A stretch of DNA of 64,000 nt from Thermoplasmatota archaeon (GCA_036626005.1 JAZKSP010000001.1:1344-65343), one strand, 5' to 3'. Positions 26,104-35,198 are shown, numbered from the stretch's first letter. Notes: generated from the sequence alone by a model not told the origin. Program-made: numbers and translations.

Positions 26104-27486
26104 CTATTCTTTCAGATAGTTCATTATGTTTTGAGCTGCTTTTCTGCCGTCTCCCATAGCCCATATCACTGTAGCCGCTCCGGATACCGCGTCTCCGCCT
26201 GCGAAGACTCCTTTTTTGGTTGTCATCCGAGTTCCTTCGTCTATTATTATCCCTCCCCAGTCTTTGACTTCCACGCCAGGAGCATTTTCATAGAATACTT
26301 TGTTGGGTTCCTGTCCTATAGCGATAACTACAGTATCGAAATCTTTCTTGTGTTCTGTATCTTCCAAAATTTTAGGGCTCGGTCTACCGCTGTCATCGGG
26401 CTCTTCTAGCTCACACTCGAATAGTTCTATTCCGTCGACCCAACCATCTTCATCTCCTATGATCCTCTTTGGATTACAGAGAGTATCGAAAGTTACGCCT
26501 TCCTGTTTAGCGTGTTCGATCTCTTCATCTCTGGCCGGTGACCACTCCGTTGTCCTCCTGTAAAGGATATGGCTCTCCGCACCCATCCTTAAAGCGCATC
26601 TAGCAGAGTCCATCGCTACGTTACCGGCTCCTATGATCCCGACTTTTTCCATGTTGGTTATCGGAGTATCATACTCCGGGAACTTGTAGGCTTTCATCAG
26701 ATTGATCCTCGTCAAGAATTCATTGGCGGAGTAAACTCCCTTCAAGTCCTCTCCTTCTAAACCCAAGAAACGGGGTGAGCCAGCTCCAGTCGCTACATAG
26801 ATAGCGTCGAAGTCCTCTTCCAATTCCTCTAATTCTATATTCTGCCCGACTATCCTGTTTAATTTTATATCTACGTCTAATTCGTCAAGATATTCCAGTT
26901 CGTGATCTATCACTTCGTTCGGTAATCTGAACTCTGGAATCCCATATTTGAGGACCCCTCCGGGTTCATGTAAAGCTTCAAAGATCGTAACCTCGTAACC
27001 GTTCTGGGCAAGTAAAGCGGCACATGTGACCCCACTAGGTCCGGAACCAACTATCGCTACTTCGTAATCTTTACTCTTCTCTATTTCAGGTATTTCTTCC
27101 AAATCGTTCTCTCGTGCATAATCCGCTACGAACCTTTCAAGCTTGCCGATATTAATCGCATCACCCACATTTCCCATAACGCAGACTTCTTCGCATTGCT
27201 CTTCCTGCGGGCACACCCTTCCAGTTATAGCCGGGATCACATTAGTTTCTTTTATTATCTCTAGAGCCTTCTTGAACTCTCCTTCAGAGATAGCTTTAAC
27301 GAAACCGGGAATATCGATCTCCACCGGACAGCCTCCGATACATGGACTTTCCGCACATTCTAAGCACCTTTCGGCTTCTTTCATCGCTTGTTCAGGTGAA
27401 TATCCTAATGGCACCTCGTCAAAATCATCCGCTCTTTCTTCCGGTTCTCTTTCAGGCACTGGGACACGTTCTTCTTCTGGACTCAT
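26104..27486 (-). CDS. GltD-like NADPH oxidoreductase large subunit (SudA / NfnB type; glutamate synthase small-chain homolog)
   Basis: N-terminal Fe-S cysteine cluster [14 protein letters not shown], two Rossmann sites ([10 protein letters not shown]; [12 protein letters not shown]) and a C-terminal GGDAV motif. The start was taken at the internal Met (MSPEEE), which overlaps the upstream gene's stop as ATGA. Confidence 0.8.
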
Positions 27487-32246: not shown

Positions 32247-35198
32247 ATGTCTGATAAGATCACTGTAACTATCGATGGAGAAGAATATGAAACTGAGCCT
32301 GGAAAGAAAGTTTTAGATGTATGCAGAGAGAACGATCTTTTCGTGCCTACACTCTGTGAGATCGAATATATCGAAGAGCCCTTTGGTGGATGTAGAGTTT
32401 GTCTTGTGGAGGCAACCACGGATAGAGGAACAGAAGTCACAACTTCCTGCGATACGCCGATACAGGATGGAATGGAGATAAAAACGGAAACGGAGGAAGT
32501 ATATGAGGGACGGAAGATGGCCCTTGAGCTTCTTTTGTCTGAACATACTGGGGATTGTGTAGCGCCATGCTCCTTCGAATGTCCCGCTAGTTTAGACGTT
32601 CAGGGTTATCTCGCGCATATTGCTAACGGAAGGCCGAGCGAGGCTGTCAAGCTAATAAAAGAGGAGACCCCTCTCGCTCTGAGTCTAGGGATGGCATGCT
32701 TCGCTCCGTGTGAAGATGAATGTAGGAGAGAATTGGTGGAAGATCCTATTGCTATAAGACAGCAGAAGATGTTTGCAGCGGAAGAGGACATAGAAGATCC
32801 TTGGACTCCAGAGATAGAAGAAGACACGGGGAAGACCGTTGGTGTTGTCGGCGGAGGCCCCGCAGGACTGACCGCAGCTTACTTCTTGAGACTCGAAGGG
32901 CACGATGTCCAGATATATGATATGATGCCGGAGCTCGGAGGCATGATGCGCTACGGTATCCCGGAATATCGACTACCTAATGATCTGCTCGACAAAGAGA
33001 TAGAATGGATACTCGACCTAGGTATCGAGGCCGAAACAGAAACTAAGCTCGGCGAAGACGTTTCACTTGAGGAACTGAGAGAAGAACATGATGCGGTGTT
33101 CATGGGCACCGGTGCATGGGACCCGTGGATGATACCGATAGACGGCATAGACTTGAGCGGTGTTATGGGCGGTATCGACTTCTTGATAGACTATAACTCT
33201 GGAAAAGACTTGGATCTCGGCGAGAAAGTAGTGGTTATAGGATGCGGAAATACAGCGATAGACGCGGCGAGAACGGCAAAGAGAATTGGAAAAGAAGTAA
33301 CTATAGCTTATCGAAGGAGCGAAGAACAAGCGCCTGCCCACCAAGATGAGATCGACGAAGCGAGAGAGGAAGGAGTAAATTTTGAATTCCTAGTGAGCCC
33401 GAAGAAAGTCTGCGGACCGGAAGACGAGGAATGTGTAGAAAAAGTCACTTGTTCTCCAGTAGAGCTAGGTGAACCGGATGAATCTGGACGTCCGAAGCCG
33501 ATAGAGATACCGGATGAAACAGTGGAGATCGAAAGTGACAGCGTAGTGCTTGCGATAGGTCAGCAGCCAGATGATGAACTTCTTGAAGACGAAGGACTTG
33601 AAGTAGAGGATTACACACTTGCTAAAAATTCTAAATTCCAGACCAATTATGAGGACGTCTTCACCGCTGGAGATGCGAATCTTGGTCCTTCATCGATAGT
33701 GGAATGTACTGGAATGGCTAGAGAAGCTGCATATGCTTTGAATGCATATCTTCAAGATAACTTAGAAGATTATGAAGTACCAAACGATTATCAGGACCCA
33801 TTCGGTTACGTTCATCAAGATGAAGTCACTGAAGAAGATCTTTGGGATTACAACAAAGAATTGAGAAGAGATATGCCGACTAGAAAGCCTAAAGAGAGAA
33901 TAAAAGATTTTGAGAGGATCGAACTAGGTTTTTCAACTGAAAAAGCGAGAGATGAAGCCGAGAGATGTTTAGAGTGCGGTTGTCTTGATCGCTTCGACTG
34001 TGAGTTGAGAGAGTACTCGGAAATGTTCGATGCTGAACAGAAAGCCTACGAAGGATTTAAATTTGAACGGGAAGAAGATGATTCTCATCCATATATACTC
34101 AGAGAGCCGCAGAAATGTATTCAGTGTGGTTCGTGTGTGCGAACGACCGAGAAGGTGCACGGTGAAGGAGCAGTTCAGTTTGCGAATAGAGGATTAGAAA
34201 CAGTTGTAGAGCCAGCTTTCGGTGATCCTTTAGGTGAGGTAGAGAGTAAACTGATTGGAGATTTAGCAGATGCTTGTCCTACGGGTGCATTTGAAGAGGT
34301 ACTTCAAGATAGAAAACCTGGTCCGCACAATACTGAGATCGCAGGCGAAACCGTCTGTTTAGAGTGTGGATTGACCTGTCCTGCTGAGGTACATGCGGTC
34401 AATGGAAGGCCCGTCATGATGAAACCGGCTGAAGATACAATCTATCAGGGACATCTCTGCGACATTGGAAAATTTGGAAGCTCTATCAATGCGCCAGATA
34501 ACGACACTGATTTTGAAGAGAGATTGTCTGAATTGAAGGAGATGATCCAAGCTAAAAAGATGGACATCATTCTAGGAAGCGCTACCACAATCGAAGAGGC
34601 GGAGAAGCTGAAAGAACTAGCGGACTATACTGAAGGGAATATTATTGCTCCGGTAGCGGATAAGAGATCAACCGCTACTGTAGACGATCTGAAGTCTGCT
34701 GAAAAATTATACGTCGATCCTTTAGTTTATGATATAGCCCCTATAATGAAGATGTTCGTCGAGAGTGCTAAGCAGAACGGTTCGGATATAGTTGCATCTT
34801 TAGAAGCTCTAGATGGTGGAATCGGAATAGTAACTCCAGCTGACGCAGGAGATTTAGATAACAGAATAGTCGTACAACCTGGTGCTAATTCCTACGGCTT
34901 GTCATGTTTAGATATCTCGGAAGGAGATGTTCAAAGTGATAATGTATTGGTTTATGGAGACAAAGACATACCGACCGAAAAGATCGAAGGTAAAAAAGTG
35001 ATACATCTCACTGGAGAAGAAAATGAGAAGGTCAAATCAGAACTATCGATACCGATACGCTCTTCTCTACAGAAACAGGGAACTATCAGGAATCTATTCG
35101 GTGAAGAGATGACTCTGACGCCAGTAGTTGAGACCTTTCTCCCGAAAAATCTAGATATTTTGGACAGTGTGATCGACCTGTATAGAAAACAGACCTAA
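32247..35198 (+). CDS. NuoG/HndD-like Fe-S subunit with an inserted GltD-like FAD/NAD(P) oxidoreductase domain (StnC/NfnB-fusion-like); no hydrogenase H-cluster or molybdopterin catalytic domain recognised
   Basis: aa 1-75 form a 2Fe-2S ferredoxin (CRVCLVE). aa ~90-480 are GltD-like (CVAPCSFECP, GVVGGGPAGL, VVIGCGNTAIDAA). aa ~520-720 carry NuoG-type clusters (CLECGC, CIQCGSCVRT, CLECGLTCP...C). The ~260-aa C-terminus is unknown. Confidence 0.75.
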   Translation: MSDKITVTIDGEEYETEPGKKVLDVCRENDLFVPTLCEIEYIEEPFGGCRVCLVEATTDRGTEVTTSCDTPIQDGMEIKTETEEVYEGRKMALELLLSEHTGDCVAPCSFECPASLDVQGYLAHIANGRPSEAVKLIKEETPLALSLGMACFAPCEDECRRELVEDPIAIRQQKMFAAEEDIEDPWTPEIEEDTGKTVGVVGGGPAGLTAAYFLRLEGHDVQIYDMMPELGGMMRYGIPEYRLPNDLLDKEIEWILDLGIEAETETKLGEDVSLEELREEHDAVFMGTGAWDPWMIPIDGIDLSGVMGGIDFLIDYNSGKDLDLGEKVVVIGCGNTAIDAARTAKRIGKEVTIAYRRSEEQAPAHQDEIDEAREEGVNFEFLVSPKKVCGPEDEECVEKVTCSPVELGEPDESGRPKPIEIPDETVEIESDSVVLAIGQQPDDELLEDEGLEVEDYTLAKNSKFQTNYEDVFTAGDANLGPSSIVECTGMAREAAYALNAYLQDNLEDYEVPNDYQDPFGYVHQDEVTEEDLWDYNKELRRDMPTRKPKERIKDFERIELGFSTEKARDEAERCLECGCLDRFDCELREYSEMFDAEQKAYEGFKFEREEDDSHPYILREPQKCIQCGSCVRTTEKVHGEGAVQFANRGLETVVEPAFGDPLGEVESKLIGDLADACPTGAFEEVLQDRKPGPHNTEIAGETVCLECGLTCPAEVHAVNGRPVMMKPAEDTIYQGHLCDIGKFGSSINAPDNDTDFEERLSELKEMIQAKKMDIILGSATTIEEAEKLKELADYTEGNIIAPVADKRSTATVDDLKSAEKLYVDPLVYDIAPIMKMFVESAKQNGSDIVASLEALDGGIGIVTPADAGDLDNRIVVQPGANSYGLSCLDISEGDVQSDNVLVYGDKDIPTEKIEGKKVIHLTGEENEKVKSELSIPIRSSLQKQGTIRNLFGEEMTLTPVVETFLPKNLDILDSVIDLYRKQT

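Follow-up and report, generated by a model that had tools for sequence, protein, structure and literature searches.

Two unrelated solutions to flavin-based electron-bifurcating transhydrogenation are known, the two-subunit NfnSL and the three-subunit NfnABC, the latter enzyme having been named Stn in Sporomusa ovata (PMC7483475). NfnABC of Thermococcus sibiricus has been purified and its structure solved by cryo-electron microscopy (cryo-EM; 9n5u/9n5v, Xiao et al. 2025), and with this complex NADPH reduces ferredoxin only when NAD+ is present (PMC12018979). The two types reportedly seldom occur together: the Thermococcaceae possess ‘either an NfnABC ... or ... NfnSL’ (PMC12018979), and in acetogens Stn and Nfn are ‘almost mutually exclusive’, the exceptions being C. 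carboxidivorans and C. magnum (PMC7483475). Here, we describe a locus in a 64 kb stretch of DNA from a Thermoplasmatota archaeon (GCA_036626005.1, JAZKSP010000001.1:1344-65343; hereafter the window, with positions counted from its first nucleotide) that very probably encodes two complete and unrelated bifurcating transhydrogenases, an NfnI-type NfnSL and an NfnABC/Stn. Because both types are present, the window is an exception to the published near exclusivity, though not the first. The genes assigned to the two enzymes are as follows.

26104-27486, minus strand: NfnL, large subunit of NfnSL/NfnI (TIGR01316, 600 bits; cutoff 472)
27483-28331, minus strand: NfnS, small subunit of NfnSL/NfnI, 282 aa (NF004862, 383 bits; cutoff 220)
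29908-30492, plus strand: NfnC (BfuC, NuoE-like), 194 aa (PF01257, E 3e-55, residues 46-190)
30489-32246, plus strand: NfnB (BfuB, NuoF-like bifurcating core), 585 aa (9n5u_B, E 9e-250)
32247-35198, plus strand: NfnA (BfuA, NuoG::GltD fusion), 983 aa (9n5u_A, E 3e-205, residues 2-890)

By sequence and by fold, the plus-strand operon encodes NfnABC (Stn, the type-1 Bfu transhydrogenase). Searches of PDB sequences placed T. sibiricus NfnABC (9n5u; E 5.5e-58 for NfnC against 9n5u_C) at the top for all three proteins, followed by the Caldicellulosiruptor saccharolyticus complex (9bov) and then by S. ovata StnABC (8oh5). A preliminary description of the window had proposed a ‘Stn-like’ operon of NuoE-like, NuoF-like and 983 aa NuoG-like genes, and both the genes and the likeness were borne out. 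The NfnC and NfnB genes overlap by 4 nt and those of NfnB and NfnA abut (0 nt). NfnB is extended at its N-terminus by a thioredoxin-like stretch and has a 2x[4Fe-4S] domain at its C-terminus, and the NuoE-like protein must be amended to include an additional N-terminal zinc ribbon of about 43 aa. The Pfam map of NfnA runs from a [2Fe-2S] domain (Fer2_4, residues 3-82) through Fer4_20 (103-183), a complete flavin/NAD(P) domain (Pyr_redox_2, 198-488) and Fer4_Nqo3 (615-682) to a weak Molybdop_Fe4S4 match (702-745). The complete GltD-like domain that had been proposed inside the NuoG-like protein therefore exists within a single ORF (open reading frame). It is not a frameshift artefact, as the NfnA ORF is uninterrupted and dozens of homologues have lengths of 971-993 aa. 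Since the insert is only distantly related to the adjacent NfnL (approximately 35-37 % identity) and is matched in the NfnA proteins of T. sibiricus, C. saccharolyticus and S. ovata, the fusion must be old, rather than derived from the neighbouring gene.

The cofactor sites of NfnABC are preserved. For NfnA, we aligned eight sequences, namely those of the window, Natronoplasma, Saliniplasma, Bipolaricaulota, Thermococcus, Caldicellulosiruptor, Heimdallarchaeota and Zixibacteria. The invariant residues include the ligands of the N-terminal [2Fe-2S] cluster (C37/C49/C52/C68), H100, the sets C104/C108/C112 and C151/C155/C159, K174, the GGGPAG motif at 202-207 and three further cysteine quartets (C574/C577/C579/C585, C624/C627/C630/C677 and C704/C707/C711/C738); a GCGNTAID motif is located at 332-339. 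K174 aligns with Lys-165 of the T. sibiricus protein, the unusual lysine ligand of cluster A7. NfnA thus has the sites for the two [4Fe-4S] clusters that go with the NfnL-like insert, one of them with three cysteines and the lysine as ligands. When the remaining sites were compared with those given for the T. sibiricus complex (PMC12018979), NfnB was found to have the FMN/NADH motifs, GGPSGG, the B1 cysteines, the equivalents of the Bfu-specific residues D195, A201, M203, F281 and the GGPSG loop, and two CxxCxxCxxxCP motifs in its C-terminal 2x[4Fe-4S] domain. The B2 zinc site of NfnB (C428/H515/C521/C526) aligns with C437/H524/C529/C534 of T. sibiricus, and the B5 site has three cysteines (C14, C45 and C49), as in T. 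sibiricus and C. saccharolyticus, where it binds zinc. The ligands of the C1 [2Fe-2S] cluster of NfnC, in its thioredoxin-like C-terminal domain, are likewise present (C116, C121, C157 and C161).

The C-terminal region of NfnA, approximately 300 aa that had been left unassigned in the preliminary description, can now be given a fold. The last 240 aa alone found only a marginal match among PDB sequences (T. sibiricus NfnA, E 0.024). An AlphaFold2 (AF2) model of residues 690-983, built from a 21-row alignment, had a mean pLDDT of 90.7 and a pTM of 0.90. Foldseek comparison of this model with the PDB gave matches, all at probability 1.0, to T. sibiricus NfnA (9n5u_A; TMq 0.70 over 294 columns), C. 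saccharolyticus NfnA (9bov_A), S. ovata StnC (8oh5_C), 8rvy_D, a truncated FdhA-like subunit of the Methanothermobacter Elp-Hdr complex, and many NuoG/75 kDa subunits of complex I (TMq about 0.8). The region from about residue 690 to 983 is therefore the reduced NuoG/Fdh-like domain. Past C738, the sole invariant residues of the eight-sequence alignment are T781, E784 and S808, which leaves no conserved ligand for a metal-pterin. NfnA ends in a conserved ‘IPIRS..QKQGT’ strand, the equivalent of the ‘ADVVLP...E..GT’ motif, and lacks the terminal β-barrel. On the evidence of the model, we interpret the region as a non-catalytic, truncated NuoG/Fdh-like domain; the FdhF-like domain of StnC is reported to be catalytically inactive (PMC10482914).

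No H-cluster (PF02906), Molybdopterin (PF00384) or Molydop_binding (PF01568) domain was detected when NfnA was searched against Pfam, and the earlier view that the operon has no catalytic hydrogenase or formate dehydrogenase domain stands. An [FeFe]-hydrogenase of the HydABC type was rejected because NfnA has no Fe_hyd_lg_C/H-cluster domain; a HydA-family match covers only the N-terminal ferredoxin-like part of the protein (residues 4-109). A NAD-dependent formate dehydrogenase of the FdsABG/FdhF type was rejected as well, PF00384 and PF01568 being unmatched and the barrel domain missing.

The minus-strand pair corresponds to the PyrK-like protein of 282 aa and the GltD-like protein of about 460 aa that had been likened to SudBA/NfnAB, a likeness upheld by P. 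furiosus NfnI (5jca), the top PDB match for both NfnS and NfnL. The family that NfnS matches, NF004862, is the ‘sulfide/dihydroorotate dehydrogenase-like FAD/NAD-binding protein’ family. The longest ORF of the GltD-like gene spans 26104-27516, and an internal ATG at 27486 overlaps the NfnS stop codon as ATGA (TGT TGC CGA TGA GTC CAG). Because of this overlap, the ATG at 27486 is most likely the start of NfnL, giving a protein of 460 aa; NfnS and NfnL are translationally coupled. The bit scores of NfnS against PDB entries were 320 for the small subunit of P. furiosus NfnI (5jca_S), 256 for the T. maritima subunit and 201 for Xfn (5vj7_B). Those of NfnL were 571 for the large subunit of NfnI (5jca_L), 538 for Xfn/NfnII, 533 for T. 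maritima NfnB and 270 for the small subunits of glutamate synthase (GOGAT). Judged by these scores, the pair is of the NfnI subtype, and not NfnII/Xfn. The Asp+3Cys motif of the NfnS [2Fe-2S] cluster is present (D219/C224/C227/C239), and NfnL has both [4Fe-4S] cluster motifs, the arginine of GIPEFRLP (the Arg near N5), YRR, and the FAD and NADPH motifs. By homology and by ligands, then, the locus has the two distinct bifurcating modules that the preliminary description had foreseen.

The two enzymes are accompanied by the following features.

25357-25908, minus strand: probable ribbon-helix-helix (RHH) regulator, 183 aa, located 3′ of NfnL
28451-28852, minus strand: conserved ORF of 133 aa (orf133), located 5′ of NfnS
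28853-29066: divergent intergenic region with promoter-like elements that are conserved in a six-locus alignment
29067-29426, plus strand: ZnR1, 119 aa, zinc ribbon plus helical domain, the first gene of the operon
29446-29883, plus strand: ZnR2, 145 aa, ZnR1 paralogue (80 % DNA identity to ZnR1 over 128 nt)

The modules had been described as back-to-back and divergent. They are encoded on opposite strands, but they are not directly adjacent, as orf133, ZnR1 and ZnR2 intervene. No family match was found for orf133 in searches of family libraries; it accompanies NfnSL in seven loci, with identities of 50-83 %. The 183 aa RHH-type gene accompanies NfnSL in eight loci. The window copy shows a weak aCcr1-like RHH match, and its 182 aa homologues in L023 and L024, which are 63 % identical, bear PF01402 (RHH_1).

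The first ~43 residues of ZnR1 and ZnR2, which follow the pattern MELEC-x2-CGYEWDYQG...CP-x-C, recur as the N-terminal extension of NfnC, in which residues 1-43 form a zinc ribbon with cysteines C5, C8, C24 and C27. The cysteines at the same positions of ZnR1 are invariant. At the DNA level, the ribbon is a 128 nt segment present in three tandem copies (29067-29194, 29446-29573 and 29908-30035) that are 70-80 % identical. A profile search of 5.8 billion proteins recovered only 36 members of the ribbon family, and those with named sources all came from Thermoplasmata/Thermoplasmatota metagenome-assembled genomes (MAGs). They comprise free proteins of 118-147 aa, ZnR-NuoE fusions of 191-194 aa and a few ribbons of 40-48 aa. 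In the AF2 model of ZnR1 (pLDDT 78.8), a flexible linker joins a four-stranded ribbon to a three-helix domain; the model has no significant neighbour in the PDB, where generic zinc ribbons (LysW and RNA polymerase subunits) appeared at E > 0.4. Searched alone against PDB sequences, the NfnC ribbon matched only the ribbons of AccD and LysW (E > 0.1). Weak Pfam matches of ZnR1 and ZnR2 to DUF1660, HypA and T4_baseplate were judged to be zinc-ribbon or charged-helix noise.

Since the N-terminal 21 residues of C. saccharolyticus NfnC are disordered in the cryo-EM map (PMC11829005), they offer no structural analogy for the NfnC ribbon. The complexes of C. saccharolyticus and T. sibiricus contain 3.0 and 3.6 Zn per mole, respectively, which is above the need of the two modelled sites (PMC11829005, PMC12018979). 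As a side observation, a CPEC knuckle within the untraced residues of C. saccharolyticus NfnC aligns with the second half of the window NfnC ribbon. Within ZnR2, the ‘A-x-A-E-V-V’ linker that comes after the ribbon is duplicated (29547-29575 and 29625-29653; repeat family D2).

The plus-strand genes are separated by gaps of 19, 24, -4 and 0 nt, with Shine-Dalgarno-like sites before ZnR2 (AGGTGAT) and NfnC (AGGTG) and an oligo-T tract 3′ of NfnA. A TATA-like element, TTTAAATA, is located 5′ of ZnR1 at 29026-29033, and an invariant TAGTAGGTAGTAGGTAG immediately precedes the ZnR1 ATG; both are conserved across six diverged loci. The gaps, the Shine-Dalgarno-like sites, the conserved TATA-like element and the oligo-T tract indicate a five-gene operon, ZnR1-ZnR2-NfnC-NfnB-NfnA. 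A scan for sigma-70 promoters and intrinsic terminators, which is unsuited to archaea, showed no excess over shuffled sequence. The divergent intergenic region also contains repeats, which lie at 28920-28965 and 28980-29012: a tandem ATAAATTATG x2 (28920-28939), additional degenerate copies of it and a repeated TTTGAAGTTT. These repeats could be bound by the RHH protein encoded 3′ of NfnL; L009 and L014, the more distant loci, conserve them only in part.

Of the characterized systems, NfnABC of T. sibiricus offers the closest comparison with the plus-strand operon. The two share the same three subunits, a short NfnA (955 aa in T. sibiricus, 983 aa in the window) with an NfnL-like insert and a reduced NuoG/Fdh-like C-terminal domain, the A7 lysine ligand, a B2 site of three cysteines and a histidine, the three cysteines of B5, C1, and the 2x[4Fe-4S] domain of NfnB. 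They differ in that the window proteins are acidic and belong to a halophilic host, and in that the window NfnC bears an N-terminal zinc ribbon and has two free, co-transcribed paralogues of it. The window genome also encodes NfnSL, whereas T. sibiricus reportedly does not. StnABC of S. ovata (8oh5) and NfnABC of C. saccharolyticus (9bov) share the NuoE/NuoF/NuoG::GltD architecture and the predicted reaction, but form tetramers, and their NfnA/StnC subunits are longer by about 200 aa (1172-1178 aa) and have a fuller FdhF-like domain, PF00384 being detectable in such homologues. The short form of NfnA found in the window is shared with archaea, with Bipolaricaulota and with some further lineages of uncultured bacteria and archaea. 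The minus-strand pair resembles NfnI of P. furiosus (formerly the sulfide dehydrogenase SudAB, 5jca) in its two subunits and cofactor motifs, and differs in its acidic proteins, its orf133 and RHH companions and the NfnABC operon alongside.

The genomic position of the two systems was surveyed by tblastn of the window proteins against 24 related loci, together with the gene tables of three more. In the window, the neighbouring gene beyond the RHH protein encodes a dehydrogenase.

23806-25140, plus strand: NADP-specific glutamate dehydrogenase (NADP-GDH; NF006929, 761 bits; cutoff 536)

Of the 22 related loci that have sequence at this slot, 18 place NADP-GDH next to NfnCBA, NfnSL or both. NfnCBA is the only system at the slot (meaning about 10 kb around it) in L002, L007, L008, L010, L012, L013 and L025; L026 is also of the NfnCBA type, with a contig start too near NfnC to show the upstream gene. 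NfnSL is the only system in L018/L019 and L021/L022, where NfnS-NfnL diverge from the GDH gene at the exact position occupied by NfnCBA in L008 and L010. Both systems are found in the window, L003, L004, L006, L009 and L014. The contigs of L023 and L024 end before the arrangement can be told, and NfnSL also occurs in contexts without GDH (L015-L017 and L020). Free ZnR1 and ZnR2 are present in all six loci with both systems and in none of those with a single system; the fused NfnC ribbon is additionally found in L012 and L013. The interchange of NfnABC and NfnSL at one slot fits an equivalent function.

Our data are consistent with a model in which both enzymes would catalyse the same reversible reaction, 2 NADPH + NAD+ + 2 Fd(ox) <-> 2 NADP+ + NADH + 2 Fd(red), where Fd is ferredoxin. 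The minus-strand unit would comprise orf133-NfnS-NfnL-RHH, with NADPH binding at the bifurcating FAD of NfnL. One electron would then pass via the two [4Fe-4S] clusters to ferredoxin, and the other via the Asp/Cys-ligated [2Fe-2S] cluster and second FAD of NfnS to NAD+. In NfnABC, the NfnL-like insert of NfnA would hold a non-bifurcating FAD that is reduced by NADPH, and the chain of clusters in NfnA would carry electrons from there to the FMN/B1/C1 ‘flavobicluster’ of NfnBC. The flavobicluster would reduce NAD+, and also ferredoxin by way of the C-terminal 2x[4Fe-4S] domain of NfnB. In an anaerobic fermenter, both enzymes would thereby couple the NADPH pool that GDH probably feeds or draws on to the pools of NADH and ferredoxin. 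The coupling to this NADPH pool is the most likely arrangement, because NADP-GDH is a conserved neighbour and the window is rich in genes of peptide and amino-acid catabolism. The gene content, the homologies, the conserved ligands, the fold of the NfnA C-terminal domain, the operon structure and the variation among loci are observed directly; catalytic activity, its direction, the link to GDH and any role of the ZnR proteins are inferences.

Several points weigh against the assignment of two complete Nfn transhydrogenases. The proposed function of every enzyme at the locus rests on homology, and NfnA is 41 % identical to a Thermococcus homologue (P0054); the PDB counterparts of NfnB, NfnC, NfnL and NfnS are matched with higher scores. 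The sequence of the B5 site of NfnB is compatible with either Zn or a [2Fe-2S] cluster as its occupant. The 64 kb window contains no hydrogenase, formate dehydrogenase or stand-alone ferredoxin gene. A six-frame scan of the window for CxxCxxCxxxC[PAG] found two motifs only, both in NfnB, and therefore no stand-alone ferredoxin; with all three kinds of gene absent from the 64 kb, no partner is assignable. The original description of the T. litoralis homologue was as ‘Nso’, an NADPH-dependent sulfur/oxygen oxidoreductase (PMC7483475). Lastly, two enzymes for one reaction at one locus look redundant, and the acceptor or the direction of one of the two may have changed.

This last objection leads to the alternative that survives best, namely that the two systems are not isofunctional and that the divergence of one explains why both have been retained, which we regard as unlikely. 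NfnSL might be an NADPH:ferredoxin oxidoreductase of an Xfn/NfnII-like or sulfide-dehydrogenase type that uses a different third substrate, or NfnABC might be an ‘Nso’-type NADPH-dependent sulfur/oxygen reductase, as the original name of the T. litoralis homologue would favour. The near exclusivity of the two types in acetogens, and the presence of one or the other in the Thermococcaceae, mean that their co-residence hints at specialization, and the two NfnSL paralogues retained in P. furiosus have separate roles (PMC7483475). Against divergence, NfnS clearly prefers NfnI (320 bits) to Xfn (201 bits), neither canonical enzyme has lost any of its NAD(H), NADP(H), flavin or cluster motifs, relatives manage on either system alone at the slot, and C. 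carboxidivorans and C. magnum bear both types too.

Far less probable is that the NuoEFG-like operon is the input module of a larger Bfu enzyme, such as a hydrogenase, formate dehydrogenase or aldehyde oxidoreductase, with its catalytic subunits encoded elsewhere. Type 2 and 3 Bfu enzymes do add separate catalytic subunits to the BfuABC scaffold (PMC12018979), and [NiFe]-hydrogenases have been reported elsewhere in the host genome. However, NfnA has a third-substrate site of its own in the FAD/NADPH NfnL-like insert, the hallmark of type-1 NfnABC, and the T. sibiricus complex is active as a bare heterotrimer (PMC12018979). In every relative the operon has unrelated genes on its flanks, an OB-fold/RPA-like gene downstream and GDH or zinc-ribbon genes upstream. 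That the GltD-like parts are GOGAT small subunits, serving nitrogen assimilation beside GDH, can be dismissed almost outright: the adjacent GDH gene and the names of many NCBIfam matches (‘glutamate synthase small subunit’ or gltA) speak for it, but the 64 kb window has no GltB-like large-subunit ORF, one GltD-like unit (NfnL, with 571 bits to Nfn versus 270 to GOGAT small subunits) is partnered and translationally coupled with the PyrK-like NfnS, and the other is fused within the NuoG-like protein.

Beyond the assignment of an NfnSL and an NfnABC, the locus suggests a more speculative idea, to which we attach little probability: in Ca. Halarchaeoplasmatales, the GDH-adjacent position may be a ‘transhydrogenase slot’ that two non-homologous bifurcating enzymes have come to occupy, either in each other's place or together, with the lineage-restricted ZnR proteins (the two free paralogues and the copy fused to NfnC) as a new accessory layer. 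Under such a scheme, the ZnR proteins might dock at the site of the NfnC N-terminus, as scaffolds or as competitors, and might assemble, regulate or couple NfnABC, and possibly NfnSL, at molar salt.

The nearest homologues of the window NfnA (65-95 % identity) are encoded by MAGs labelled Ca. Natronoplasma, Ca. Saliniplasma, Thermoplasmata and Thermoplasmatota, and the host is a Natronoplasma-like MAG of the order Ca. Halarchaeoplasmatales, also named Haloplasmatales. Published genome analyses portray this lineage as salt-in halophiles, and the window Nfn proteins are strongly acidic (pI 4.1-4.9; Asp+Glu 16-27 %). The preliminary description considered such a locus unusual in an archaeon with an acidic proteome: the halophilic host is indeed new, but archaeal occurrence is not, as a purified NfnABC and its structure are already available from Thermococcus (PMC12018979, PMC7483475). 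Beyond the order, the named proteins closest to NfnA belong to Bipolaricaulota/Acetothermia (53-57 %), with Thermococcus next at ~41 %, and those closest to NfnS belong to brine-pool MSBL1 (75-82 %) and Hadarchaeota (71 %); the NfnS relatives from these two groups together span 68-82 %. The bacterial kin of NfnA and the MSBL1/Hadarchaeota kin of NfnS hint at transfer among organisms of hypersaline sediments.

Both enzymes are ordinary members of characterized families, and knowledge of the families themselves is unchanged. What goes beyond the routine is the coexistence of the two types, the interchangeable slot and the lineage-restricted zinc-ribbon accessories, rather than a new system. With this locus, the range of NfnABC/Stn and NfnI comes to include an uncultured order of extremely halophilic archaea, and salt-adapted sequences become available for a Bfu enzyme that is under active mechanistic study. 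Natural coexistence and substitution at one locus provide genomic support for the equivalence of two unrelated Nfn solutions, and the NADP-GDH link offers a testable hypothesis for how NADPH from amino-acid oxidation is balanced against ferredoxin and H2 metabolism.

The gene content of the window fits an amino-acid-fermenting lifestyle. FolD and succinyl-CoA synthetase beta are encoded within the 64 kb, as are the following features.

7-6645: cluster of peptide and amino-acid catabolism genes
within 7-6645: two TldD/PmbA peptidases, the longest ORFs of which overlap by ~120 nt
within 7-6645: M42 aminopeptidase, glycine-cleavage T protein and a dihydrolipoamide-dehydrogenase-like flavoprotein
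15173-16459: second glutamate dehydrogenase, archaeal GdhA/GdhB type (NF040817, 481 bits, below cutoff)
16482-19481: large protein of 999 aa with a PPDK_N (PEP-utilising, ATP-grasp) domain
19529-22696: neighbouring paralogue of 1055 aa, also with a PPDK_N domain

The glutamate dehydrogenase at 15173-16459 is distinct from the NADP-specific GdhA-type enzyme at 23806. The larger of the two PPDK_N paralogues has an additional C-terminal nucleotidyltransferase domain, and the pair is also found upstream of GDH in L007 and L013.

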